Source: an uncultured archaeon
GTDB lineage: Archaea; Iainarchaeota; Iainarchaeia; Iainarchaeales; JAAZKV01
Direction of reading: 5' to 3'
Assembly: GCA_964544205.1 (NCBI GenBank)
Contig: CAZJAE010000001.1
Location: 1-27,460 of the forward strand
Length of the DNA stretch: 27,460 bases
Of the stretch, positions 5,205 through 18,997 are shown piece by piece. The notes beneath the pieces are model-generated. The model was given only the letters and a program-made list of their open reading frames with translations, had not been told where the DNA came from and made no database searches. Position numbers and translations under genes: made by a program. How positions within the stretch are numbered: position 1 is the stretch's first letter; the number at the start of each line of letters is the position of its first letter.

Positions 5205-5909
5205 TTATCTCCCCTGCGTGTGCAGGTGCGTTTTGGTTCTAAAATTTCCTTTTCTTTGTGTTGCTGGGATTGTGGCTTCTTTTATAAGTTCAAACTTAGC
5301 GTTTCTTTTTGAGCCGCTTTTTAGGAGGTTTGTCATTGTTTGCGGGTATCTTGTAGCGCATTGTTCTCTCCATGCGCCCATTCCCCTGACTGCCACGCTT
5401 GGCGCGATTTGTATTTTGTTGCGGTAAATCCATTTTTGGACTTCCATAGCGATTGATTCTTTGGTGTATCCGAGATTTTTTCCGCTCGTTGCAAAAAATC
5501 TCCCTGTGTGTATTTCTTTTATCCTCGCTTCAATGTATTTTTCCACGCCTTGTGCTTTTCGCTCTCTTGATGCGCTTTCTTTGTGCATCCGCCGCACTGT
5601 TGAGACCATTCTTTTGACTCCTGCAGTCATTTTTACTGGCGCGCCTTTTTTTGCTTCTTGGTTCATTGCTTTTCTTGTGATAATGTTTTGAGCTTCTCCC
5701 GCGTCGGGAGGGTTTTTCACAAGAACTATTAGCGTTCCTTTTCCGAATTTTCTTATTCTTGGGGCGATTTCGTTTTCAAAGTGGTCTTTTATCTGTGCGG
5801 GTGTTCTTCTGTAGAATTTGTCCGTGTGCGCTATTGATTTTACTGTCGCGGGCCATGCAGGGTGGGTGATGAAGACTATTTCGCTTATTGGCGCTGTGTT
5901 TTGCTGCAT
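5205..5909 (-). CDS. Basic hypothetical protein, possibly a degenerate cysteine-hydrolase-like fold
   Basis: 234-aa ORF with ATG start fills the gap between lonB and DUF373. The fold guess rests only on IVFITHP and GMGAWREQCA. Confidence 0.7.
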   Translation of the reverse strand: MQQNTAPISEIVFITHPAWPATVKSIAHTDKFYRRTPAQIKDHFENEIAPRIRKFGKGTLIVLVKNPPDAGEAQNIITRKAMNQEAKKGAPVKMTAGVKRMVSTVRRMHKESASRERKAQGVEKYIEARIKEIHTGRFFATSGKNLGYTKESIAMEVQKWIYRNKIQIAPSVAVRGMGAWREQCATRYPQTMTNLLKSGSKRNAKFELIKEATIPATQRKGNFRTKTHLHTQGR

Positions 5910-5943
5910 AAATAGAACTTTTTTGCTTTGGCAGTTGATTTTT

Positions 5944-7167
5944 TTATGACATTACTAGTATTCTTCCGTTGCTGATTGTGAATTCGTCTCTTTTCTTTTC
6001 CAATTTTTTCATTGTTTTCGGCTCTTGTATGATTATTACTTGTTTTGTTTTGTTCGCTTCTATTACTTTTCCAAGGTAGTTGCCTTGTTCGTCTATTGCG
6101 TTGAGTCCGACGAATAGTTTTGTCACTCTTTCCCTGATGTCGAATGTTTTTCCTATTCTCATAGCAATTATTAGTATTACAAAGCTCACCATTATGTTTG
6201 CTGGGAGCCATGAGAGTTCTGCTTGTCTTAGGAATACTAAAGTTCCAGCGTCTATTATCGCCCATGCGCATATTATTGCGAGGATTTGCACTATGTGGTC
6301 TCCGAGTTTGTATGCTCTTTTCGCGTATACTGAGTCTGTCGCTCTTCCTGTGATGAGGACTACTGCGCTGAATACCATGAATGGGTATAGTGTTCTTAGC
6401 GCGCTTGCAACGTCAATGCTTACGTCTATGAACTCTGATGACATTAATTGTATGTAAGCTATCCATATTCCGACAAGCGGGAGCAGTACTGCTGCTATGT
6501 ACATCACAAAGCTCATGTATCTTTGTTCTGTTAGGCTGCTTGTAACCATTCTTATGAATGCGAATATTCTGTCTTCTATTCCGAATCCTTTCAATAGCAG
6601 GTATGCTCCTGCTATGAGGGCTATTACTTGTATTGACTGCGAGCCGAGGAAGAAGAATGTTAGTAGGAGTATTCCTGGTACTCCAAGGGCGAGTCTTGCT
6701 ATTCCTGGGTCTTTTAGCGCTTCTTTTATTGTGTAGAATGTTGATTCAACTGCTTGCGCTTGTTTGATTATTACTTGTTCTGTTGAGATTATTTTTGCTC
6801 TTGACTGGAGTATTGGGGTTACTTGCGAGTCTTCCGCCCCGTCTGTTATCATTATCCACCCGTCTATTAGGTATTCTTTTTCGAGTATGTCAAGCTGTCT
6901 GTTTATTTCTTTGTCCGCCGCGAGTCCTATTTTTCCCTCGCCTGTAATTGTGACTATTTCCACGTTTTTGTAGTGTTTTTTTGCTTCTTCGAGTTTTGAG
7001 AGCGCGGCAAACATTGTGTTTGCGTCGCTTTCGCTTGGGTCTGCGAGGATTAGTTTTTGCGCGGCTTCGAGGTTTCTTTCTTTTCCTATTACTGGTCCTC
7101 TAACGTTTGCCTTTCTTCCAAGGTCGTTGTCGCGGTCTACGCATACTACGAATACTTTCTTTTTCAT
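5944..7167 (-). CDS. DUF373-family archaeal membrane protein with C-terminal PRC-barrel-like extension
   Basis: Signature VVCVDRDNDLGRK...GPVIG...ADPSESDAN and DGAED, followed by multiple TM helices. ATG at 7167. Confidence 0.88.
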   Translation of the reverse strand: MKKKVFVVCVDRDNDLGRKANVRGPVIGKERNLEAAQKLILADPSESDANTMFAALSKLEEAKKHYKNVEIVTITGEGKIGLAADKEINRQLDILEKEYLIDGWIMITDGAEDSQVTPILQSRAKIISTEQVIIKQAQAVESTFYTIKEALKDPGIARLALGVPGILLLTFFFLGSQSIQVIALIAGAYLLLKGFGIEDRIFAFIRMVTSSLTEQRYMSFVMYIAAVLLPLVGIWIAYIQLMSSEFIDVSIDVASALRTLYPFMVFSAVVLITGRATDSVYAKRAYKLGDHIVQILAIICAWAIIDAGTLVFLRQAELSWLPANIMVSFVILIIAMRIGKTFDIRERVTKLFVGLNAIDEQGNYLGKVIEANKTKQVIIIQEPKTMKKLEKKRDEFTISNGRILVMS

Positions 7168-7200
7168 CAAAATCAACGCTTTTTTGGGCTATCTATAATA

Positions 7201-7226
7201 ATATATAAGGGCGAAACCTTATATAT
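7201..7226. promoter_or_regulatory. Back-to-back TATA boxes forming a divergent promoter for DUF373 and SPFH
   Basis: Perfect 10-bp inverted repeat ATATATAAGG-gcgaaa-CCTTATATAT between divergent start codons. Confidence 0.65.
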
Positions 7227-7286
7227 AAAAGTGAGTTAAAGTATTTAGCAGATGTGATTTTTTTCGGGTTATAGTAGGTTTTTTTG

Positions 7287-8282
7287 ATGGCTGCTCAGAA
7301 CTTTAGGTTTGTAGTTTTTGGGGTTCTTGTTCTTGCGATTATTGCCGCGATTTATTTCTTGTTCATTGTGCAGGATTTTGTGATTAATAACATTGTCTGG
7401 ATTGCAATTTTGGTGTTTTTCGCCATTGTTGTTTATAAGTATGATTTTATCCTTCAGCTTCTTGATTATCAGCGCGCTGTGATTTATCGTTTTGGTAAGG
7501 TTCACAGGGTTGGTGGTCCTGGATGGACATGGATTTGGCCTATTATTGAGCGTTTTGACCCTGTTGATTTGCGTGTTAAGACTATTGATGTCCCTAAGCA
7601 GAAGGTCATTACTAAGGACAGCGTTGAGGTTACTGTTGATGCGGTTTTGTATCTTAAAGTCAAGAAGGATAATCAGAGTGTTGTGAATTCTGTAATCGAG
7701 GTTGAGGATTATGTGAGCGCTGCTCAGCAGTTCATTACCGCTTCGCTTCGTGATGTTTTGGGTTCCATGGAGCTTAGCGAGGTTGTTTCTAATATTGAAG
7801 TTATTAATGCGAAGATTAGGGAGAATTTGGAGCAGATTTCCAAGAACTGGGGAGTTACTATTGAGTCTATTGAGATTCAGAGCGTTGAGATTCCGCAGAC
7901 TGTGCTTGACGCGATGCATGAGCAGAAGGCCGCTGTTCAGCAGAAGCTTGCGAGGATGGAGAAGGCGCTTGCTCAGAAGGCGGAGATTGATGCGGTTAAG
8001 GAAGCGGCAGCTAATTTGGATGACAAGGCGCTTTCGTATTATTACATTAAGGCTATTGAGAATATGGCTAACAGCAAGGGGAGCAAAGTGTTTTTCCCAA
8101 GCGAGTTTTCAAAGCTTGCCGAGTCTTTTACTCATGTAACTGAGGGTATGAGGAGCGGGAGCGCAAAGGATTCGAAGGCTGAGTATTACAAGACTCTTTT
8201 GAAGGATTATGTGAATAAGTCTGTCAAGAAGTCAAGGGGCGACAGGGAGCCTGTTAGAAAGTTTAAGAAGAAAAAGAAGTAG
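7287..8282 (+). CDS. SPFH/band 7 (stomatin-like) membrane protein
   Basis: N-terminal TM helices, YQRAVIYRFGK, VDLRVKTIDVPKQKVITKDSVEVTVDAV, WGVTIESIEIQ and a coiled-coil C-terminal region. Confidence 0.95.
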   Translation: MAAQNFRFVVFGVLVLAIIAAIYFLFIVQDFVINNIVWIAILVFFAIVVYKYDFILQLLDYQRAVIYRFGKVHRVGGPGWTWIWPIIERFDPVDLRVKTIDVPKQKVITKDSVEVTVDAVLYLKVKKDNQSVVNSVIEVEDYVSAAQQFITASLRDVLGSMELSEVVSNIEVINAKIRENLEQISKNWGVTIESIEIQSVEIPQTVLDAMHEQKAAVQQKLARMEKALAQKAEIDAVKEAAANLDDKALSYYYIKAIENMANSKGSKVFFPSEFSKLAESFTHVTEGMRSGSAKDSKAEYYKTLLKDYVNKSVKKSRGDREPVRKFKKKKK

Positions 8283-8376
8283 TTATTTTACTCCTCTTTT
8301 TTTGAGAGTTTGTCTCTGATTTTTAAAAAAGTGTTTTGTTAAAAAGCCCGAAAAGAACTAAGTGTTTTTTTCGTTT

Positions 8377-8649
8377 TTACTTTAGCTTTTCAACTTCTTT
8401 TTTCAGTTCGCCGAGTTCTTCTTTGAGTGTTTTGATTGCTTCTTCAAGAACTTTTTTCGGGTTTTTTGCTGTTGTTTTGATTACAAATCTTGCTTTTGTG
8501 TCAAGCGGGTGGTCTAGTCTGTATGCGCAGAATTCAACTGCTGTGTCTGCCGAGATTTTTTCTTTCAGCAGGTTTGGTAGTGTGTGTCTTTCTCCTTCTA
8601 TGTAGAATTCTAAATGGTTTTTTTCGTTTGTTATAACTGTTACCTTCAT
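8377..8649 (-). CDS. rpoL: DNA-directed RNA polymerase subunit L (Rpo11)
   Basis: GERHTLPNLL and AYRLDHPL motifs, 90 aa, AGGTGG SD upstream, adjacent to csl4 as in many archaea. Confidence 0.96.
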   Translation of the reverse strand: MKVTVITNEKNHLEFYIEGERHTLPNLLKEKISADTAVEFCAYRLDHPLDTKARFVIKTTAKNPKKVLEEAIKTLKEELGELKKEVEKLK

Positions 8650-8655
8650 TTTTGC

Positions 8656-8693
8656 CCACCTGTAATTATTTCCTTTTAGCTAATTATTATAAA
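8656..8693 (-). promoter_or_regulatory. Putative rpoL promoter and ribosome-binding site
   Basis: On the minus strand, TTTATAAT at 8693-8686 and AGGTGG at 8661-8656 lie upstream of the ATG at 8649. Confidence 0.55.
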
Positions 8694-8732
8694 CTTTCCA
8701 TTTGGCGTTTTAAACGCATTTTAACGGGTTTT

Positions 8733-9503
8733 TTAGCGTCTATCTCTTCCGCCAAAGCTTCTTTGCCCGTCTCTTCTTCCGCCAAATCCTCGGTTTCTGT
8801 TGTCTCGTCCCCCGAATCCTCCGCCAAATCCGCCTTCTCTTCTGGGTCCGCTTCTTCCTCTAAATCCTCCGCCGCCAAATCCCCTGTCTCTTCCGCCTTC
8901 TCTTCTTTCAAATCCTCTGCCGTATCCGCCTTCTCTTGGGGCTCTTGGCTGGTATTCGTCTTCTTTTTCAAACCATTTCCTGTCTTCTACGTTTCCGCAT
9001 GATATGCACATTAGTTTTCCTGCAGAGAATTGCATTTCGCTTCGGCAGTTTGAGCAGTATGCTTTGATTATTCCTAGTCCTTTGCCTTTTGTGCTTAAAT
9101 CCACTCCGAGTTCGCTGTAGCCTACTATCTGGGCTCTTATTATGTCGCCTATTTTTACTGTTTTTTTGAGTTCGTGTATGTATTCGTTTGCCACGTTTCT
9201 TACTGCGAGTTGCGCTATTGTCTGTCCTGTGATTCTTTTTCCATTCTCGGCTTTTAGTAGTGTTATCACAGCGGTTGATTCTTTTACAAGCATTACTTTC
9301 CCGATTACTATGTCCCCGGCTCTTATTTCGTCCACTTTTTTTCCAATTATTCTTGCTTCTTTGTTAGCGTCATCATATTCCGCAACTCCTACTGCTGTTG
9401 CGAGTATTTTTCCTTCTTTTGCGTAAGTGTTTTCTCCGCTCACGTATTCTTCTTCTGTTGCTATGAATTCTCCGGGAATAATTATCCTGTTTTTTTCAGT
9501 CAT
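8733..9503 (-). CDS. csl4: Exosome RNA-binding cap protein Csl4 with RGG/FGG-rich C-terminal tail
   Basis: IIPGEFIATEEEY N-terminal domain, S1 domain (GDIVIGKV...GDIIRA) and Zn ribbon CSNC...CISC. GGTGA SD precedes the ATG at 9503. Confidence 0.95.
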   Translation of the reverse strand: MTEKNRIIIPGEFIATEEEYVSGENTYAKEGKILATAVGVAEYDDANKEARIIGKKVDEIRAGDIVIGKVMLVKESTAVITLLKAENGKRITGQTIAQLAVRNVANEYIHELKKTVKIGDIIRAQIVGYSELGVDLSTKGKGLGIIKAYCSNCRSEMQFSAGKLMCISCGNVEDRKWFEKEDEYQPRAPREGGYGRGFERREGGRDRGFGGGGFRGRSGPRREGGFGGGFGGRDNRNRGFGGRRDGQRSFGGRDRR

Positions 9504-9597
9504 TTTCTTCACCAATAGCTAATGTTTTTATACACAAAAAACAAGTGTATTTGTGTAAGGAATTGTTTTAAAGAAGACTTTTAAAGTAAGTGGTTGA

Positions 9598-10569
9598 ATG
9601 GTTTTGGAATCCATAATCGGGGAGAAGAATATTAGAAAGCGCCCTGTTTTCATCTTTTTTATTACTCTTCTTATATGCGCGGGGAGTATTTTCTTTGCGG
9701 ATAAGATGTTTCCGACGCATTCGTCTATTCTTTCGGTTGCGTTCATTACTATAGGGCTTGTTCCGCTTGTTTTCAACATTCTTTCGGACGAGGAGGCTGA
9801 CGAGGAGGTTAATCATAAGCATTTCTCCACTTTTTTTGCCCGCCATTTTAATATTATTCTTCTTTATGTCTGGATTTTTATCGGGATAATAGTTGCTTTC
9901 TCGATTTATTATGCTCTAGTGTCTCCTGCCGACAGGCCTGTATTGTTTTCGGAGCAGATTAAGTCTTTTTGCGCGATTTCGGGGACTGATTCTTGTGTGG
10001 GCGGCGTTCCTCTCTCGGTTTCGGGCATGGCTGCTTCTTTTGGCTTTGAGGCTTGCATGTCAAACAACAGCAATGTGGCTTCCTGCACGTGGTTTATTTT
10101 CACGAATAATTTTGAGGTTCTTGTCCTGACTGTTCTTCTTTCTCTTCTTTACGGCGTGGGCGCGATTTTCATGATTGCGTGGAATGCTTCTATTCTTGGA
10201 GTGTTCTTTGGCGAGATGCTTGCTGTAGGGAATCTTTCAAAGGGTTTGGGTTTGTTTCACGGGCTTTTAATCGGGCACGGTCCTCCTGAGCTTTTGGGGT
10301 ATGTTTTCGGGGCTCTTGCTGGGGCGATTCTTTCCGCGATGGTTGCAAGGGGCGATTACTCGAGTCATCATTCAGGAATAATAATTAAGGATGTAGTTTT
10401 CCTTTCCGGCCTTGCGATTTTTTCCGTCGCTTACGGCGCGGTTACTGAAGCGCTTGGGATTTTGAGAATGGGCGAGCTTTACTTTTTGATGGGTTTCTTG
10501 TACTTGGTTGTTATTATTCTCGCTGTTTTCTTTTACGGGCAGAAGAGGTTCTTAGCTCTCGGGCTCTAA
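9598..10569 (+). CDS. SpoIIM/DUF95-like polytopic membrane protein
   Basis: Multiple TM helices with IFTNN, AWNASILG and HGPPEL motifs typical of the family. Confidence 0.8.
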   Translation: MVLESIIGEKNIRKRPVFIFFITLLICAGSIFFADKMFPTHSSILSVAFITIGLVPLVFNILSDEEADEEVNHKHFSTFFARHFNIILLYVWIFIGIIVAFSIYYALVSPADRPVLFSEQIKSFCAISGTDSCVGGVPLSVSGMAASFGFEACMSNNSNVASCTWFIFTNNFEVLVLTVLLSLLYGVGAIFMIAWNASILGVFFGEMLAVGNLSKGLGLFHGLLIGHGPPELLGYVFGALAGAILSAMVARGDYSSHHSGIIIKDVVFLSGLAIFSVAYGAVTEALGILRMGELYFLMGFLYLVVIILAVFFYGQKRFLALGL

Positions 10570-10636
10570 TTGCCTTTGCCGCATTTTTTGTTTTTGCAAA
10601 ATTTGTTTTTTAAATTGTTCTTTAGGGTTTTAGTTG

Positions 10637-11455
10637 ATGGCTAAGTTTGTTAATCCGAATAAGAAGAAGGAGAAGAAGCCTTCAAAGATTGGCGGAGCAT
10701 ATGCTGCATTTAAGGAAAGGTTTTCTTTTCTCAAATGGCTTGATCCTTTCACTTATGTTGATATTTTTGTTATTCCTCATGTTAAGAAGGTTACAAAGAG
10801 CGAGACTGTGGAGTTTTTAGTCAACGCTGTTTTTGCGTTTGTCTTTGCGTGGATTATTTACACCGCTCTTGGATTGATTTTTGGTTCTTCAAGTCCTCTT
10901 GTGATTGTTTATTCTGCTTCCATGGAGCCTTCGTTTTTCAGGGGGGATGTGATGGCGCTTTCTCGGGCGAATCCTTCTGATTTTTTCGGGCCTGAAGTTT
11001 CTCTGCCTTTTCCTGTTAAGGGGAGGGGCGTGTATGAGTATCTCCAGCCGTCTTATGAGTCCGGAGTGCTTTCATCAATTTATTTTTCAGACGCGAATGT
11101 TTCAATAACTCCTGGAATTAGCGGTAATGTTGTAGTGTATACTTCTTATCCGCATGGTCTTCCAATAATTCACCGCTCGATTGCCTTGATTCATGCTTCT
11201 GACGGGGATTTTCTTTTGACTAAGGGGGATAATTCTGTGACTAATTATACTTTTGACCAGGACTGCGGTTCGCTCGTGAACGGCTCAGCTTCGCGTCCTT
11301 GCGTTACTCTTTATGCTGTTCCTTTAAGCGAGGTTGTCGGAAAGACTTTTTTTAGTATTCCAAAAATCGGGTGCGTGAAGCTCTGGCTTCTTGATGATTT
11401 TACTTCAGTTCTCGCCACTGGTTCTCTTCCGAGGGACTTTAAGGGAATCTGTTAG
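10637..11455 (+). CDS. sec11: Signal peptidase I (archaeal Sec11/S26 type)
   Basis: TM helix then SASMEPSFFRGD (catalytic Ser), PIIHR (His) and LTKGDN. Confidence 0.92.
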   Translation: MAKFVNPNKKKEKKPSKIGGAYAAFKERFSFLKWLDPFTYVDIFVIPHVKKVTKSETVEFLVNAVFAFVFAWIIYTALGLIFGSSSPLVIVYSASMEPSFFRGDVMALSRANPSDFFGPEVSLPFPVKGRGVYEYLQPSYESGVLSSIYFSDANVSITPGISGNVVVYTSYPHGLPIIHRSIALIHASDGDFLLTKGDNSVTNYTFDQDCGSLVNGSASRPCVTLYAVPLSEVVGKTFFSIPKIGCVKLWLLDDFTSVLATGSLPRDFKGIC

Positions 11456-12111: not shown

Positions 12112-12199
12112 GATAATTTATCGCCGCAGTTTGAATATAATTATTTGTCTTTTTGTTTTATCACGCAATGTTTTTATTCTCCCTTGTCCTCTCTTGTGC

Positions 12200-12700
12200 A
12201 TGCTTGAAGGTATTGTTCCTGATTTGTCTTTTTTGACAGGCGCTTTGCTTGTCGAGTATTCTGTTCTTGCGATTGAGGTTTCTGTTGTTGTGATAATTCT
12301 CGGGTTAATTGTGATTGTTCTTGCGAGGAGGCGCTCTCTTGAGGAGAGGCATGCAGTCAAGGTTTTGTCCTCTGTTGAGAAGCTCAGGCAGGGCAAGTTT
12401 GTTTCTAAATCCTCCGAGAAGGCTTCGGTTTCTAAGTCATCAAACGGCAGGGCTCATAAGGATTCTTCTGACAAGAAGCTTGTAATTTCAAAGGCGGAGA
12501 CTTCGCTTAAAGATATGCTTGTAAAGAAGTTTAAGCCAAAGATTGAATCCCAGCTTAATACTAAAGTGGTTATTATTGATTTTAATGCGCAGAATGAGAA
12601 TTTTCTAGCGCTTGTTGAGATTAGCGGCGTTAAGCTTCTTTTGACGCTTGATTCTTCTGGCAAGATTATTGATTATAAGAAGGTTAAGCAAAACCAGTAG
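12200..12700 (+). CDS. Single-pass membrane hypothetical protein
   Basis: ATG at 12200, then a TM helix, a Ser/Lys-rich linker and a small alpha/beta C-terminal domain. The upstream ORF-track extension overlaps the opposite-strand gene. Confidence 0.7.
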   Translation: MLEGIVPDLSFLTGALLVEYSVLAIEVSVVVIILGLIVIVLARRRSLEERHAVKVLSSVEKLRQGKFVSKSSEKASVSKSSNGRAHKDSSDKKLVISKAETSLKDMLVKKFKPKIESQLNTKVVIIDFNAQNENFLALVEISGVKLLLTLDSSGKIIDYKKVKQNQ

Positions 12701-12780
12701 TTTTCGGGGCGTTTTTTGGCTTGTTTTGAGTGCTTTTTTTAAACCTAATGAGGGTTGTGTTTGTAAGAGAGTGTGGTTGA

Positions 12781-13524
12781 ATGGAGCTTGTTTTGAAGAA
12801 CGCGGATGTTTTTAAGAAGAGCATGGAAGCTATTGCTGTTTTGATTGACGAGGCTGAGCTTGTTGTGTCTTCTAACGGGCTTGAGCTTAAAGCGACTGAC
12901 CCGAGTCAGATTTCAATGGTTGATTTTGCAATGCCTAAGTCCGCTTTTTCAAAGTTTGATGCCAGCGATATGAGGCTTGGGCTTGACCTTGATTATTTGA
13001 ATCAGGTTCTTTCAAGAGCCGCGAGCGGGGATGAGCTTGTATTGTCTGTTGACGATAAGAAGGCTTTTTTGACTGTTGCTTTTAATGGGCACGCTAAGAG
13101 GGCTTTTCAGGTTCCTTTGATTGATATTTCTACTTCGGAGGTTCCTAATCCGAGGATTGAGTTTGACGCAGAGATGGTTGTAGCCGCAAATTTTTTGCAG
13201 AGCGCGTTTAAGGACGCTGCGCTTATCAGCTCGCATGTTGTTCTTGGTTGTTCTGAGGACAAGTTTTACGTGAAAGCGAATTCTTCTAAGGGTAATCTTA
13301 ACGAGGATGTTAAAACCAACAAGACTTCTCTTCCCGAGTTGAGGGTTAAGAGGGAGTGCAAGAGCATGTTTCCGCTTGATTATTTGCAGGATATGCTTAA
13401 GGCTGCGGGCGGGGATGTTAAGGTTAATTTGTACTTGAAGTCAAACGCGCCTGTGAGGGTTTCTTACTCTATCGGTGAAGCGGGTATTAATTATTTCCTT
13501 GCTCCAAGGATCGAATCCCAGTAA
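12781..13524 (+). CDS. pcn: DNA polymerase sliding clamp PCNA, canonical-looking copy
   Basis: LKATDPSQISMVD, LGLDLDYL, FQVPLID interdomain loop and C-terminal YFLAPRIE. Confidence 0.96.
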   Translation: MELVLKNADVFKKSMEAIAVLIDEAELVVSSNGLELKATDPSQISMVDFAMPKSAFSKFDASDMRLGLDLDYLNQVLSRAASGDELVLSVDDKKAFLTVAFNGHAKRAFQVPLIDISTSEVPNPRIEFDAEMVVAANFLQSAFKDAALISSHVVLGCSEDKFYVKANSSKGNLNEDVKTNKTSLPELRVKRECKSMFPLDYLQDMLKAAGGDVKVNLYLKSNAPVRVSYSIGEAGINYFLAPRIESQ

Positions 13525-13576
13525 TTGTTTTTCCCAAAAAGCGTTTTTTGCGGAGTGTAAAAAGCGCTTTGACTAA

Positions 13577-13586
13577 TTATTAAATA
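13577..13586 (+). promoter_or_regulatory. Putative TATA box for the second PCNA gene
   Basis: TTATTAAATA ends about 30 nt upstream of the ATG at 13617. Confidence 0.5.
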
Positions 13587-13616
13587 CTTCTGAGTGTATA
13601 GTTTGTTAGTGGTTTG

Positions 13617-14333
13617 ATGCTTGAGTTGAAGAACAGCTTTTTTTTGAAATCCGCTGTGGAGTCTATTTCTTCTTTTATTCCTGAAGGGAATTTTCGTTTT
13701 TCGGATAAGGGGGTTTCTTTGAGGGCGATTGACCCAAGCCAAGTAGTGCTTGTTGATTATTTTGTCGATAAGAAGAATTTTGACAAGTACGTGATTGAGC
13801 CTAGTTTTGTCGGGCTTGATGTCGTAGAGCTTAACAGTATTTTGCAGCGCGCAATGCCTAATGACAAGCTTTTGATTGATGTTTCTGACGCCGAGCTTAA
13901 GGTTCGTTTCGAGTCCGAGCTTAAGAGGTATTTTAGGCTTCCTCTTATCGATGTTTCCGAGGGCGAGATTAAAGTTCCAGCGATTGAGTATGAGGCGAAG
14001 GTGGATATTCTTGCGCTGTCTTTTAAGGAGATTTTAAAGGATGCTTCTCTTTTCGGTTCGAGCGTGGTGCTCAAAGTTTCTGACGGAAAGTTTTTCATTG
14101 AGGCGAAGGGGGCTTCGGGTGTTATGGAGTCCGAAGCTACGCGTGTTTCAACAATCTCGACTAAGAAGGAGATTACTGCGAAGTTTTCGCTTAATTTTTT
14201 GCAGAATATAGCGCGTCAGGCGGATAATGAGAAGCATATTTCTATTGAGCTAAAGAATGACGCCGCCATGAAGGTGTCTTATTCCATTGGTCCGGGAAAG
14301 ATTGTTTTCTACCTTGCTCACATGATTTTGTAG
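13617..14333 (+). CDS. pcn: Second, divergent PCNA paralogue
   Basis: LRAIDPSQVVLVD, VGLDV, FRLPLID, KFSLNFL and FYLAHMIL. Collinear with the upstream copy over its full length. Confidence 0.93.
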   Translation: MLELKNSFFLKSAVESISSFIPEGNFRFSDKGVSLRAIDPSQVVLVDYFVDKKNFDKYVIEPSFVGLDVVELNSILQRAMPNDKLLIDVSDAELKVRFESELKRYFRLPLIDVSEGEIKVPAIEYEAKVDILALSFKEILKDASLFGSSVVLKVSDGKFFIEAKGASGVMESEATRVSTISTKKEITAKFSLNFLQNIARQADNEKHISIELKNDAAMKVSYSIGPGKIVFYLAHMIL

Positions 14334-14433: not shown

Positions 14434-15495
14434 ATGGACGGGGTTTTTTTCGCTCAGAATTTTCCTTTCTCCGCCTCTGCGCGTAATCACTTAAAGAAGC
14501 TTGATATTCAGACTAACAGTATTTCTTCTTCTGCGATTAAGCGCGCTGAGTTGTTCATCGAGAAGGCTTTTTTTTCCGATAAGGATTATGCTTATCTTAA
14601 AAGTCCTTATCCTGAGGATCAGGAGAATAACATAGTGGCGTTTCCTGTGGCGAAAATGATTGTTTCCGCGATGAATACTCCTAATATTATTCATAAGTTT
14701 GCGAATTATTTTAGAATAAGGACTTTTAGCGTGCTTCAGAATTCTCTTGAGCGGAGGAATGATGATGCCATGGCGCTTGCCTCTGATTTTGGAATTCATT
14801 TTTCTCTTTCTTCTGACGGGAATTTTTTTGAAGTGCCTCTTGTTGAGTATTTGTCCATTCATTTTATGGATGATTCTTCCCGTTTAATTAATCGTCCTCT
14901 TGAGGGCGGGGTTGTCTCGCTGAATGCCGATGCTTTTTCGCGTTTTGTTGCCGAGCTTTCTTATTCCCGAATTTTTGATTCGCTCCCTATTTCGCGGGAA
15001 TCAATTCCTAAGCCTTTGTTGCTTTCAGCAAAATCTCTTGATTCGCGTCTTGTGGTTATTGAGAAGAGGGAGTTTGACGTGAAGCTTTCCGGAAAGATTG
15101 ACCCTGAACTTTTCCCCCCTTGTCTTGCGAATGCTTATACGAATCAGCTTGCCGGCAAGAAGCTCTCGTACATGGAGCGTTTGACGCTGGGCGGTTTTTT
15201 GCACAAGCTTGGAATGTCTAAATCCGATTTGCTTGTAGTGTTTTCAAAGAGTCCTGATTATGATCGTAAGATTGCAGAGTATCATATTGACAGGATTATT
15301 GAGAAGGATCTTGACGCGCCGGGTTTTAAGAAGATTCATGACGAGTACGGGATGAAGACTAAGGATTGCGATAAGGTTGAGGGCAAGTATCGTCACCCTA
15401 TTCAGTTTTACCTTGCTCGGCTTGCAGTGAAGAACAGGATGAAGAACATGCCAAAAAATAAGCCGGTTTTTAGCGGGGGCGGTGCGAATGTTTGA
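14434..15495 (+). CDS. priL: DNA primase large subunit PriL
   Basis: N-terminal FPF, INRPLEGGVV, FPPC, FSKSPDYD and HPIQFY motifs. Lies directly upstream of priS. Confidence 0.9.
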   Translation: MDGVFFAQNFPFSASARNHLKKLDIQTNSISSSAIKRAELFIEKAFFSDKDYAYLKSPYPEDQENNIVAFPVAKMIVSAMNTPNIIHKFANYFRIRTFSVLQNSLERRNDDAMALASDFGIHFSLSSDGNFFEVPLVEYLSIHFMDDSSRLINRPLEGGVVSLNADAFSRFVAELSYSRIFDSLPISRESIPKPLLLSAKSLDSRLVVIEKREFDVKLSGKIDPELFPPCLANAYTNQLAGKKLSYMERLTLGGFLHKLGMSKSDLLVVFSKSPDYDRKIAEYHIDRIIEKDLDAPGFKKIHDEYGMKTKDCDKVEGKYRHPIQFYLARLAVKNRMKNMPKNKPVFSGGGANV

Positions 15496-16630
15496 TTTGC
15501 AGAACTCGCAGGAAGCTGTTTTTTTAAGAGAGCATTTCGCAAAGTATTATTCCTTGAATGCTGTTGAGGCAATGCCTGATCTTGCGTTGAGGGAGTTTGG
15601 CTACGGGGTTTTTAGGCGCAAGATTGCGAATAGGAATATGGCTTTTTCTTCCGCCGCCGAGATGAACTTGTTTTTGCGGGAGAGCGTTCCGATGTTTTTT
15701 TCTTATTCTAATTCTTGTTATAATTTTCCGTCCAAGACTCCTACTTTTGCAAAGGGGTGGGTGAAGTCGGATTTGATTTATGAGTTTGACGCGGACGAGC
15801 TCGGGCTTGAAGTGGAGACTATTAACGGTATTCAGTGGTTTGAGGGGAGGCATCTTGAGGAAGCTAAGCGGCAGGTGTTTCGTCTTGTTGAATTTTTGGA
15901 GAATGATTTTAGTTTTCCTCTTGACTCGCTTGCGGTTAATTTTTCAGGCAAGGCTGGTTACCATGTTCATCTTCGCTGGGATAAGATTCAGCAGTTGAAT
16001 AAGCGGGCAAGAATCGAGCTTGTGGATTATTTGACCGGGCACAACATTGATTTTGTCCATTTGGGCTTTAATTTTGACTCGCTTCAGTGTCCTCCGTATA
16101 AGGGGCTTTGGGTTAAGCGTCTTGCCGCGGGCGTGAAGGATTTTTTCGCGGGCGATTCCAAGGTTATTGCGAAAGTAATGGGCACTACTCCAAAGAAAGC
16201 CGCTTCTTTTGCTTTGCTTGGCGGAAAGATTTTTGAGATGATGCAAAAAGGGCGTCTTTTTTCTTTTGATGCGAAAAGGGATGCTGAGTTTTGGGAGAAT
16301 ATTCTTTCTCACGTGGCAAAACTTGTTTCTGTTCCGATTGACCGCCAGACGAGCACTGATTTGAATAAGATTGTGAGGGTGCCAATGACTCTTCACGGCG
16401 ATACTGGGCTTTTGGCGAAGAAGGTTTCGCTTGATTCTTTGAAGACTTTTGACCCTTACTTGGAGTCAGTTGTTTTCGGCAAGGACTTGGTGAAGGTTCG
16501 TGTGATTAAAGCGCCTAAGTTTTCGCTTGGGGGCTCTGTTTTTGGTCCTTTTGAGGATGAAGTTGTTTCGCTTCCTTTGTTTTGCGCGGTTTATCTTGTC
16601 GGAAAAGGCGCCGCGCTTCTTAAGGAATAG
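15488..16630 (+). CDS. priS: DNA primase small (catalytic) subunit PriS
   Basis: REFGY, KGWVKSDLIYEFDAD, FSGKAGYH and IDRQTSTD...RVPMTLHGDTG motifs. 8-bp overlap with the priL 3' end (ATGTTTGA). Confidence 0.94.
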   Translation: MFDLQNSQEAVFLREHFAKYYSLNAVEAMPDLALREFGYGVFRRKIANRNMAFSSAAEMNLFLRESVPMFFSYSNSCYNFPSKTPTFAKGWVKSDLIYEFDADELGLEVETINGIQWFEGRHLEEAKRQVFRLVEFLENDFSFPLDSLAVNFSGKAGYHVHLRWDKIQQLNKRARIELVDYLTGHNIDFVHLGFNFDSLQCPPYKGLWVKRLAAGVKDFFAGDSKVIAKVMGTTPKKAASFALLGGKIFEMMQKGRLFSFDAKRDAEFWENILSHVAKLVSVPIDRQTSTDLNKIVRVPMTLHGDTGLLAKKVSLDSLKTFDPYLESVVFGKDLVKVRVIKAPKFSLGGSVFGPFEDEVVSLPLFCAVYLVGKGAALLKE

Positions 16631-16727: not shown

Positions 16728-17264
16728 ATGCGAATTGATTATGACGAGCTTCGCAGGATTCATAGGCTTGAGAAGAATACGTCTAAGTTAGTCGAGGTTG
16801 AGGATGATTTTATCGACTCCGTCTCTGCTTTTGTTGATGAAGAGAAGAAGAAGTATCTCGCTTCTCTTAAGAATTTTTCAGCTTCCGACGCGAGGGAGTT
16901 TACTAACTTAAAGCGCGTGATTGAAGAGATTTTCATGATGCGCGAGAAGAAGATTTTAAACAAGGCGCTTATTACTGTGCACACTAAGGAAGTAAGCGAT
17001 GATAAAATGGCGAAGCAGGAGAAGGATGTTTTTAGAAAGCTTTTGAGGACTCTTGAGGAGCATCATGACATGCATCAGGCTTTTTTCGGGGATAAGGAGA
17101 AGAAGGATGCCCAGCTTGTTTCGGTTAAGATTTTGAAGGATATTCCGACTTTTGTGGGCACGGATATGAAGGAGTACGGTCCTTTTGCGGAAGGAGCGTC
17201 TGTTGAGCTTCCTGCAAAGGTTGCGCGTTTGTTTGTTACAAGAAAAATTGCCGAAGAGAAGTAG
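16728..17264 (+). CDS. GINS complex subunit (Gins15/Gins51 type)
   Basis: Helical A domain (EIFMMREKKIL) and C-terminal B domain VKILKDIPTFVGTDMKEYGPF. Syntenic with priS. Confidence 0.9.
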   Translation: MRIDYDELRRIHRLEKNTSKLVEVEDDFIDSVSAFVDEEKKKYLASLKNFSASDAREFTNLKRVIEEIFMMREKKILNKALITVHTKEVSDDKMAKQEKDVFRKLLRTLEEHHDMHQAFFGDKEKKDAQLVSVKILKDIPTFVGTDMKEYGPFAEGASVELPAKVARLFVTRKIAEEK

Positions 17265-17334: not shown

Positions 17335-18096
17335 ATGGATTTTCCTAACCGTGATGATTTTGTTGTCGTTAAAGTTAACCAGATTCTGGATTACGGCGTT
17401 TTTGTAGAGCTTTTGGAGTATAAGCACGTCAGGGGTTTTGTTCACATCAGCAATGTTTCTAGTTCTTGGGTTAAGAATATTAGAAATTTTGTGAAGATGA
17501 ATCAGGTTAGAGCCGCTAAGGTTCTTAATGTTGACAAGGAAAAGAAGCAGGTTGACCTGGCTTTTGCCGGAATTAATCCGATGAGGGAGAGGCAGGTTCT
17601 TACGCAATTTAAGCAGATTAATAGGGAAGAGAAGCTTATTGAGATTTTGTCAAAGTCTACCGGCAAGCCGTTTAATGATGTCTGGGCAGAGGTTGCGGAG
17701 CCTTTGAATCAGGAGCACGGCTCTCTTTATGAGGCTTTTGAAAAGATTGCGCTTGGTTATGATCCTTCAGCAGTGCTTGCTAAGCAGTGGGTTGGTCCTG
17801 TTAAGGATTTGGTTGAGAAGAATATTGTTGTTTCTAAAAAGGAGATTACAGGCAAGCTTAAGCTTTCCTGCGCCAAGTCAAGCGGTCTTAGCGCTGTTAA
17901 GGACGTGTTGTCCGATGCCGAGGGCGTTAAGGGGTGCGAGGTTAGTTATGCCGGCGGGGGTTTGTTTAATATTGCCTGCTCGGGTTTGACTTTTAAGGAT
18001 GCTGACAAGGTTTTGTCGTCAGTGATTGAGGGCGCTGAGAAGAAGGCTAAGAAGCTTGGCGTTTCTTTTGAGTTCACAAGGGATGAAAAGAAGTAG
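17335..18096 (+). CDS. eif2a: Translation initiation factor aIF2 alpha subunit
   Basis: S1 domain YGVFVELLEY...GFVHISNVSSSWVKNIRNFVK, followed by helical and C-terminal alpha/beta domains. Confidence 0.96.
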   Translation: MDFPNRDDFVVVKVNQILDYGVFVELLEYKHVRGFVHISNVSSSWVKNIRNFVKMNQVRAAKVLNVDKEKKQVDLAFAGINPMRERQVLTQFKQINREEKLIEILSKSTGKPFNDVWAEVAEPLNQEHGSLYEAFEKIALGYDPSAVLAKQWVGPVKDLVEKNIVVSKKEITGKLKLSCAKSSGLSAVKDVLSDAEGVKGCEVSYAGGGLFNIACSGLTFKDADKVLSSVIEGAEKKAKKLGVSFEFTRDEKK

Positions 18097-18229: not shown

Positions 18230-18997
18230 TTAGTTTTTTTGTATTAGGTATATTGCGAACAGGTTTGGGCAGTTTAGTTCGCCGGTCTTGTCTTTTTTTA
18301 TCAGTTCTGAGTGGATTTTGAGGTTGTATTTTGAAAAATCGTTTATTGAGTATTTTGTGTACTCGATTCCGGCGTTTGTCAGTATTTGCTCCATTTCTTT
18401 TTTTGTCAGGGACGCGTTTAGGGAGCGGAGGAATCTTTCTTTTTCGTGTTTGTCGTTTATTGTTGAGAGTCTTTTTTTGATTTCTTCTTCTGGCGCGTCT
18501 CTTGTCAGGTCGAATATGTATATCATTCCTCCTTTTTTTGCGAGCATTAGTATGTCGTGCATTCCATTTTCAACTTCTTTTAGGTGGTGGAATGAGTCTT
18601 TTATTATGACGACGTCGTTTTCGCCCCGCGTCGGGTGGTAGTGTATGTCTTCTACCGCGAATTTTACAGGGTATTTTTTGTATTTTTCTTTTGCGGTTTT
18701 TATGAGTTCTTCGCTCGCGTCTGTTGCGCGGATGTTTTGGTTTTTTGTCAGTTCGAAGAGCGCGGCGGCGAGTTGTCCTGCTCCGCAGGCTATTTCGAGG
18801 ATGTTATCGCTGTGCGAGGGGTTTGTTTTTTCTATTATGTCCTGGGCGACGAGCCGGTAGGTAAGTGTTCTGTCGTCTTTTCGGTTCGCGTATTTTTTTC
18901 CCTCTTCTCCTGTTATTGCTTCTTCTTTTTCAGGAAACCTTATTTTTGGGTTGAATGTGAATTTTCCGGATTTTATAGGCATTATTGTCACTGACAT
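18230..18997 (-). CDS. Class I SAM-dependent methyltransferase
   Basis: Motif I ILEIACGAGQL, ATDAS, VEDI and SFHH...KKGGMIYIFD. Confidence 0.9.
   Translation of the reverse strand: MSVTIMPIKSGKFTFNPKIRFPEKEEAITGEEGKKYANRKDDRTLTYRLVAQDIIEKTNPSHSDNILEIACGAGQLAAALFELTKNQNIRATDASEELIKTAKEKYKKYPVKFAVEDIHYHPTRGENDVVIIKDSFHHLKEVENGMHDILMLAKKGGMIYIFDLTRDAPEEEIKKRLSTINDKHEKERFLRSLNASLTKKEMEQILTNAGIEYTKYSINDFSKYNLKIHSELIKKDKTGELNCPNLFAIYLIQKN

Follow-up and report, generated by a model that had tools for sequence, protein, structure and literature searches.

A 27,460-nucleotide stretch of DNA from an uncultured archaeon of the phylum Iainarchaeota (hereafter the window) carries two genes for the sliding clamp PCNA in tandem, a canonical paralogue that we call PCNA-A and a divergent one that we call PCNA-B. 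The two were very probably produced by tandem duplication of a single archaeal PCNA gene at the head of a conserved replication-translation gene array, before the orders that now carry both copies diverged, and nearly all descendants have kept both. As to how the two proteins assemble, we favour, at a probability of roughly 45%, separate homotrimers of A and of B over one mixed ring. The pair is laid out as follows (coordinates are those of the whole window on its forward strand, unless a contig or locus is named):

12781 to 13524, + strand: PCNA-A, the canonical sliding-clamp paralogue, 247 amino acids, tail YFLAPRIESQ-stop; Pfam PCNA_N and PCNA_C.
13525 to 13616, + strand: spacer between PCNA-A and PCNA-B, 92 nt, with T-rich tracts (TTGTTTTTCCCAAAAAGCGTTTTTTGCGG) directly 3' of the PCNA-A stop codon.
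13617 to 14333, + strand: PCNA-B, the divergent sliding-clamp paralogue, 238 amino acids, tail FYLAHMIL-stop; Pfam PCNA_N and PCNA_C.
14307 to 14333, + strand: C-terminal signature of the PCNA-B family, FYLAHMIL-stop in place of the canonical LAPR[IV]E, from the orthologue alignment.

The first-pass annotation of this DNA had described two full-length, intact PCNA genes in tandem, roughly one-third identical and without an obvious DNA-level repeat, at the head of a primase-GINS cluster, and each part of that description holds. Both genes are complete open reading frames (ORFs) whose products match PCNA_N and PCNA_C above the curated cut-offs; the ORF list puts the PCNA-B start at a TTG codon at 13614, and we set it at the ATG at 13617 because orthologues begin M[LI]EL there. 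The two proteins share 86 of 242 residues (36%; BLASTP, E 2e-48, 142 bits), and no DNA-level repeat longer than 34 nt was found between the genes, short matches falling at homologous codons only. Against the TIGR00590 model (cut-off 99.1 bits), PCNA-A scores above the threshold (113.5) and PCNA-B just below it (94.0); against NF002219 (cut-off 293 bits), both score below (212.9 and 164.6), as do all 61 relatives examined. No third PCNA gene was found in the organism's own 870-kb, 62%-complete assembly.

The pair is a phylum-level trait and not a feature of this one genome, since two PCNA matches turn up in nearly all genomes sampled and the recovered copies fall into two orthogroups. In the genome collection used, the sampled class amounts to the whole phylum Iainarchaeota (Diapherotrites, within DPANN). 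At least two PCNA matches were found in 145 of its 151 genomes and exactly two in 140, and a sample of relatives and a sample of the phylum both agree with this class-wide count. Among Nanoarchaeota, used as a control, exactly one PCNA was found in 76 of 81 genomes, and the second match in the sole genome with two is a contig-end fragment. By phmmer and family hidden Markov models, each copy recovered clearly scores better against one window protein than against the other, which defines orthogroups A and B; both span the archaeon's own order (32 family codes) and two further orders of the phylum. An A-type gene only was recovered in two single-genome lineages (G063 of family f35, 94% complete, and G070 of family f36). 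These may have lost B or may have branched before the duplication, and their existence means that A can work alone.

Downstream of the pair, the rest of the array reads:

14434 to 15495, + strand: PriL, primase large subunit (Pfam DNA_primase_lrg), the next gene 3' of PCNA-B.
15482 to 16630, + strand: PriS, primase small subunit (Pfam DNA_primase_S), array position conserved.
16728 to 17264, + strand: Gins51 (Pfam Gins51_C and Sld5), array position conserved.
17335 to 18096, + strand: aIF2alpha (Pfam EIF_2_alpha and S1), last gene of the conserved replication-translation array, position conserved.

The genes are thus colinear in the order A-B-PriL-PriS-Gins51-aIF2alpha, with the PCNA pair at the head. 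In each of the 47 non-redundant loci from which both genes were recovered, PCNA-A precedes PCNA-B on one strand, at a spacing that ranges across the phylum from 1 nt to 16.9 kb (less than 200 nt in 26 loci, 0.2–2 kb in 12, more than 2 kb in nine); in family f3 the two genes are about 630 kb apart. The gap is 1–17 nt in the deep-branching families f34 and f32 and at locus L107, the contig of the deepest B representative (GCA_054474525.1, JBPLLH010000004.1). Where a gene match was found 3' of B (27 of 34 loci examined), the next match is PriL in 23 cases and PriS in the four f34 loci, and insertions sit either between A and B or between PriL and PriS. The fixed A-then-B order, the very short gaps in deep lineages and the later insertions argue for a tandem duplication within the PCNA slot of the array.

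The L107 array (5262–11009) comprises PCNA-A, PCNA-B, a PriX/PriL-like gene, PriS, Gins51, S27e, aIF2alpha, Nop10 and PAC2, with overlapping stops and starts. The window array is without S27e and Nop10, and a reverse-strand methyltransferase gene (18230–18997) stands between aIF2alpha and PAC2; because L107 keeps S27e, Nop10 and a compact array, the arrangement in the window is the derived one. On the 5' side of PCNA-A, a 170-residue ORF (12188–12700, + strand) has no Pfam match and recurs at the same place in two loci of its genus, L033 and L036. Scanning the window with Rfam and for tRNAs gave no matches.

Phylogenetic placement of B called for a careful tree and an approximately unbiased (AU) test, since FastTree and a quick IQ-TREE run did not settle it. 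In the careful tree (IQ-TREE, LG+C20 with posterior mean site frequencies, 97 sequences, with Pyrococcus, Methanococcales, Altiarchaeota, Thermoplasmata and Nanoarchaeota as named anchors), orthogroup A is monophyletic with 97% bootstrap and 84% support in the approximate likelihood ratio test (SH-aLRT), and orthogroup B with 100% in both; the two are joined, with or without one further long-branch sequence, in 74% of bootstrap trees. The AU test, run on a 138-row quick tree, does not reject an A+B clade (p 0.90), and the tree constrained to contain it scores 47 log-likelihood units above the free quick search. Similarity searches point the same way. When B was searched against 1.84 billion cluster representatives, the best matches outside the B family were A types from Iainarchaeota. 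The score of B to A is 142 bits, compared with 112 for Thermococcus PCNA1, 72 for T. kodakarensis PCNA2 and no more than 75 for any subunit from Sulfolobus. For A, the best match with a solved structure is Pyrococcus/Thermococcus PCNA (142 bits); no Sulfolobus subunit comes as close to A or to B as the other paralogue and Thermococcales PCNA do. The suggestion that the pair arose independently of crenarchaeal PCNA1/2/3 is borne out by these scores and by A and B being each other's nearest clades in the tree; the proposed antiquity of their divergence is likewise upheld, both orthogroups extending across three orders and both being under strong purifying selection.

Two sets of outlying sequences came to light in these searches. 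In Methanofastidiosum, a PCNA-like protein on a very long branch (P0148 with its cluster members), labelled 'hypothetical protein' in several metagenome-assembled genomes and ending ..MYLAPMEI, may be another divergent or second clamp. Among the matches to B, P0131, P0086, P0118 and P0142 are unusually long proteins with PCNA-like stretches, one of 2395 residues with 13 matched stretches and the others of 340–415 residues with a PCNA domain plus extra sequence.

Selection on the two copies was compared by the ratio of nonsynonymous to synonymous substitution rates (dN/dS; the NG86 method) in same-genus pairs, which gave 0.02–0.14 for A and 0.02–0.15 for B; in matched genome pairs the values for A and B were 0.021 and 0.020, 0.062 and 0.081, and 0.065 and 0.042. 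Mean pairwise identity over 39 genomes is 0.52 for A and 0.48 for B. These substitution patterns indicate that A and B are both functional and strongly constrained. Relaxed selection on the second copy, an outcome that the first-pass annotation had allowed for, and pseudogenisation of B are therefore rejected, the low dN/dS range of B being like that of A.

One feature that sets PCNA-B apart is its C-terminus. The tail segment of PCNA lines the pocket for the conserved glutamine of the PCNA-interacting peptide (PIP) box and pairs with the peptide backbone. The canonical docking tail, L-A-P-[KR]-[IV]-E, is present in A and not in B, a departure at the binding site rather than in the fold. The B-family signature is LAHM[IL][LI]-stop, and in 40 of 48 B orthologues the chain ends in LAHM plus two hydrophobic residues; histidine replaces proline in 42 of the 48 and methionine replaces arginine in 47, and the chain stops two hydrophobic residues later. 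Proline and arginine occupy these positions in all 61 A copies (LAPRIE in the window), APR is found in 25 of 27 Nanoarchaeota PCNAs and is also the commonest reading in the other PCNAs sampled, and non-B tails run on as LAPR[IV]E plus a few residues. The contrast first noticed in the window, FYLAHMIL in the second copy against YFLAPRIE in the first, is thus the signature of the whole B family and not a quirk of one genome.

Other parts of the molecule have changed to differing degrees. The interdomain connecting loop is more variable in B, with a mean column entropy of 2.11 bits versus 1.23 bits in A. The equivalent of human M40 is a hydrophobic residue in B and threonine in A, so the hydrophobic pocket has not simply been lost. 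At the sequence level, the four inner helices carry on average 3.3 lysines or arginines in A, 5.0 in B and 5 in P. horikoshii, with fewer acidic residues in B than in A (discriminating sites K74, K137, N193 and N197); with inner helices this basic, B looks built to encircle DNA. At the head-to-tail interface of the ring, R82, K84 and R109 of P. furiosus PCNA face E139, D143 and D147. No fewer than 58 of the 61 A sequences and 46 of the 48 B sequences keep the equivalents of R82, R109 and D147, whereas the equivalents of positions 84, 139 and 143 vary by family. By P. horikoshii numbering, the K84 equivalent is K/Q in A and L/M in B, that of E139 is G/S/D in A and R/K in B, and that of R167 is K/R in A and E in B; the hairpin before the interface strand reads K-G-K in A and E-G-E/D in B, and the loop after strand D2 is shorter and more basic in B. 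An AlphaFold2 model of B is confident (mean per-residue confidence, pLDDT, 92.3; predicted template-modelling score, pTM, 0.88), has the canonical order of strands and helices and superposes on T. kodakarensis PCNA1 (PDB 3LX1) with a template-modelling score of 0.92. Model and alignments together show B as a predicted clamp fold with a rebuilt docking face.

We examined the C-termini of putative clamp clients, which in Iainarchaeota include both PolB and PolD (here G000 is the window's own genome):

C69:1456-2286, + strand, G000: Fen1, C-terminal PIP box ..QKSLSQWF.
C14:473-1702, + strand, G000: NreA homologue (Nre_N and Nre_C), C-terminal PIP box ..QTRLSQWF.
PolD subunit DP2, Iainarchaeota (L122–L128): C-terminus QKSL[SF]EF[AV].
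PolD subunit DP2, eight Nanoarchaeota (L129–L136): C-terminus KQxGLGxWF(G) in seven of the eight.
PolB, Iainarchaeota: C-terminus Q..L..[WF][GMFN], variable.

In these endings, the second aromatic position of the PIP box is relaxed in the polymerases and kept in Fen1 and NreA. The PolD box without the W-F pair is found in the phylum that has two PCNAs, and Nanoarchaeota DP2 keeps WF. The idea that PIP boxes fall into two distinct classes, one for each clamp, was considered and rejected, there being no clean dichotomy and the PolB endings being variable; the different flavours of box are a suggestive lead for the partitioning of partners between A and B. A DUF7504/KaiC-like protein of the same genome (C108:379-1077, minus strand) has QKLSQFF near its C-terminus and may be a further PCNA client. 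In the family f34 genome G062, a second, divergent B-family polymerase-like ORF (C6:41667-43433; L146–L148) of about 1075 residues, matched in three pieces, ends in the PIP-like ..RRQITIEDYF.

The small subunit of the clamp loader gave no sign of a matching duplication. One gene for the small subunit of replication factor C (RFC; Rep_fac_C) was found per genome in 14 Iainarchaeota and six Nanoarchaeota controls, so that, as far as the RFC small subunit goes, these 20 genomes give no support for a dedicated second clamp loader. In two genomes the small-subunit match lies in a much longer frame (961 residues, G095:C6:143807-144073; 776 residues, G037:C1:89296-89562) than the roughly 330 residues seen elsewhere, which may reflect intein insertions or fusions.

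Phylogenetic footprinting of the sequence upstream of each gene identified one conserved A/T-rich box per gene:

12734 to 12751, + strand: promoter-like box of PCNA-A, TTTTTTTAAACCTAATGA, with a TTTAAA core 43 nt 5' of the ATG.
13574 to 13588, + strand: promoter-like box of PCNA-B, TAATTATTAAATACT, with a TTAAATA core 37 nt 5' of the ATG.

Upstream of A, TTTTTAAA(C/T)CTAATGA or a close variant stands at a similar distance in most of 14 same-genus or same-family loci; upstream of B, most of 15 such loci have the box listed above, or a close variant, about as far from the start codon. The two boxes differ in sequence, and the remainder of both spacers is not conserved between the loci compared. 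The TATA box originally proposed for the second copy is therefore supported by footprinting, and the box upstream of A is a putative TATA element with B recognition element (TATA/BRE). This would fit separate promoters and short leaders for A and B in this lineage. T-tracts are the usual archaeal termination signal, and transcription probably terminates at the T-rich tracts 3' of the PCNA-A stop on that account.

How might the two proteins be deployed? In the explanation we prefer, A is the canonical replicative clamp, with its LAPRIE tail and conserved connecting loop, and B a predicted ring-competent, DNA-encircling subunit with a full two-domain fold, the R82/R109/D147 equivalents and inner helices more basic than those of A. 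The docking face of B has been rebuilt by the change from Pro-Arg to His-Met in the tail, by the exchange of an acidic end for a short hydrophobic one and by a connecting loop left free to vary. A and B would each close a homotrimeric ring, and the single RFC would load both. With its altered pocket, the B ring would attend to some of the clients or to one particular step, so that work would be shared out between two clamps and not among the subunits of one.

The evidence on assembly tilts slightly toward two such rings. We favour them because each family keeps both halves of the ancestral self-interface, and because the charge reversals look self-complementary within each family and repulsive at one cross junction, where the N-side of A would meet the C-side of B. 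Further reasons are that A and B appear to be separately promoted in the window's lineage and lie far apart in f3, that A alone suffices in two lineages, that T. kodakarensis PCNA1 and PCNA2 each form their own homotrimer (PMC3504372), and that a three-fold ring made from two gene products needs three kinds of interface at once, A-A (or B-B), A-B and B-A. Nor is co-evolution of A with B above that of A with PriS or Gins51: a mirror-tree comparison of A and B with PriS, Gins51 and aIF2alpha found no excess A-B co-evolution (distance correlation 0.64, partial 0.10; A-PriS 0.77), which is weak evidence because 17 genomes afford little power. Several points weigh against this reading in addition to the small size of the mirror-tree sample. 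A+B sisterhood has no more than moderate bootstrap support, and the stem of the B clade is long. The argument from charge complementarity takes its interface geometry from the general PCNA topology and not from coordinates. The generic interface residues are common to both families and compatible with cross-assembly; the packing of A and B 1–17 nt apart in one compact array in deep lineages suits co-translated subunits of one complex; and near-perfect co-occurrence with one RFC small subunit fits a heteromer equally well.

It is accordingly a real possibility, if one we hold tentatively, that A and B co-assemble as a heteromeric ring (A2B or AB2), an independently evolved counterpart of the crenarchaeal heterotrimer, with one non-canonical docking site supplied by B. 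Near-universal co-occurrence, a fixed order with operon-like spacing that is ancestral, equal purifying selection, the single RFC small subunit, the R82, R109 and D147 equivalents that make A-B contacts plausible, and the differing PIP boxes of the clients (WF in Fen1, NreA and Nanoarchaeota DP2; other endings in Iainarchaeota DP2 and PolB) all speak for it, and Sulfolobus provides a precedent for subunit-specific partner binding (PMC3504372, PMC1636371). The requirement for three kinds of interface, the apparently repulsive junction, the lack of excess co-evolution among the 17 genomes, the separate promoter-like boxes, the distance in f3 and the A-only lineages speak against it; moreover, the compact array also holds PriL, PriS and GINS, which means that neighbouring genes in it need not encode physical partners. 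A more particular version, which we consider unlikely, is an asymmetric two-gene ring in which the His-Met-hydrophobic tail of B would give a single polymerase a docking site of its own. The candidate is PolD, since the PIP box at its C-terminus has lost the W-F pair in Iainarchaeota and keeps it in Nanoarchaeota.

Less probable still is that B is no processivity ring at all and works as a monomer or dimer, whether as an adaptor or regulator associated, for instance, with primase or GINS, or as a decoy that sequesters PIP-box proteins. B does stay next to the primase genes while A drifts off (PriL follows B in 23 of 27 loci), its partner-binding tail is rebuilt, its connecting loop is variable and its score falls short of the TIGR00590 equivalog cut-off; yet the three interface equivalents are kept in nearly every B sequence, the inner helices are more basic than those of A, as a DNA-encircling surface requires, and the confident model of B is that of a canonical clamp protomer throughout. 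That B could be a recent viral or mobile-element acquisition, like T. kodakarensis PCNA2, or a decaying duplicate is scarcely credible. Extra archaeal PCNA copies are usually ascribed to mobile elements, often integrated ones (PMC3914693). B, however, shows none of the marks of such copies (patchy distribution, location in an integrated element, viral affinity): it spans three orders at a fixed chromosomal position, its dN/dS is low, it shares no DNA-level repeat with A, and it scores 72 bits to T. kodakarensis PCNA2 against 142 to A. A tblastn search of 50,697 phage and archaeal-virus records returned only distant PCNAs from haloviruses (PhiCh1, phiH) and from a methanogen virus, 20–22% identical to B with a best E of 6e-7, and a scan of IMG/VR for the B signature found no relative. 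A viral or mobile origin was rejected on these grounds, and B does not group with viral PCNAs as the earlier reading of the window had allowed it might.

The pair resembles known multi-PCNA systems yet belongs to neither of the established archaeal types. As in the crenarchaeal heterotrimer (Sulfolobus PCNA1/2/3; PDB 2HII, 2IX2, 2NTI), the copies are ancient, lineage-wide paralogues kept by duplication and not by mobile elements, and they differ at the partner-binding site in a way that permits partner specialisation. Iainarchaeota, however, have two paralogues rather than three, of independent origin and not orthologous to those of Sulfolobus; A and B both keep the generic self-interface residues, and the pair occurs in a DPANN lineage whose genomes measure about 1 Mb. 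T. kodakarensis likewise has two PCNA genes per genome (PCNA1, TK0535, and PCNA2, TK0582; PDB 3LX1, 3LX2). TK0582 is dispensable and restricted to its lineage, and it has been placed in an integrated virus-like element (PMC3914693), whereas B is phylum-wide, chromosomal, fixed in position, strongly constrained and unrelated to it. The gene order of the window is that of the known archaeal PCNA-PriS-Gins51-aIF2alpha cluster, of which L107 also keeps S27e, Nop10 and PAC2, except that the PCNA slot holds two tandem genes and PriL is part of the array as well. As an idea, a second, specialised clamp beside the replicative one recalls eukaryotic PCNA and the 9-1-1 checkpoint clamp; 9-1-1, however, is a heterotrimer in which all three proteins differ, and it has a loader of its own, whereas Iainarchaeota have one extra gene and one RFC small subunit.

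Archaeal PCNA outside Crenarchaeota is treated as a single-copy homotrimer. Broad surveys regard the gene as essentially single-copy there, a 2025 one placing it among the mostly single-copy replisome genes (PMC12680538), and our full-text literature searches returned no paper on two PCNAs in Diapherotrites/Iainarchaeota. The present findings call for caution with phylogenomic marker sets in which every archaeal genome is taken to have a single PCNA. They also mean that a whole genome-reduced DPANN phylum has maintained a second clamp gene ever since its main orders separated, under selection that matches that on the first; the LAHMIL tail, set against LAPRIE, offers a simple, testable handle on its role. 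Were the asymmetric A2B or AB2 ring true, a 1-Mb DPANN genome would hard-wire polymerase choice into its clamp. Whether as two insulated rings or as a fixed heteromer, the pair gives a second and independent natural experiment on how the tasks of a homotrimeric clamp are divided once its gene has been duplicated.

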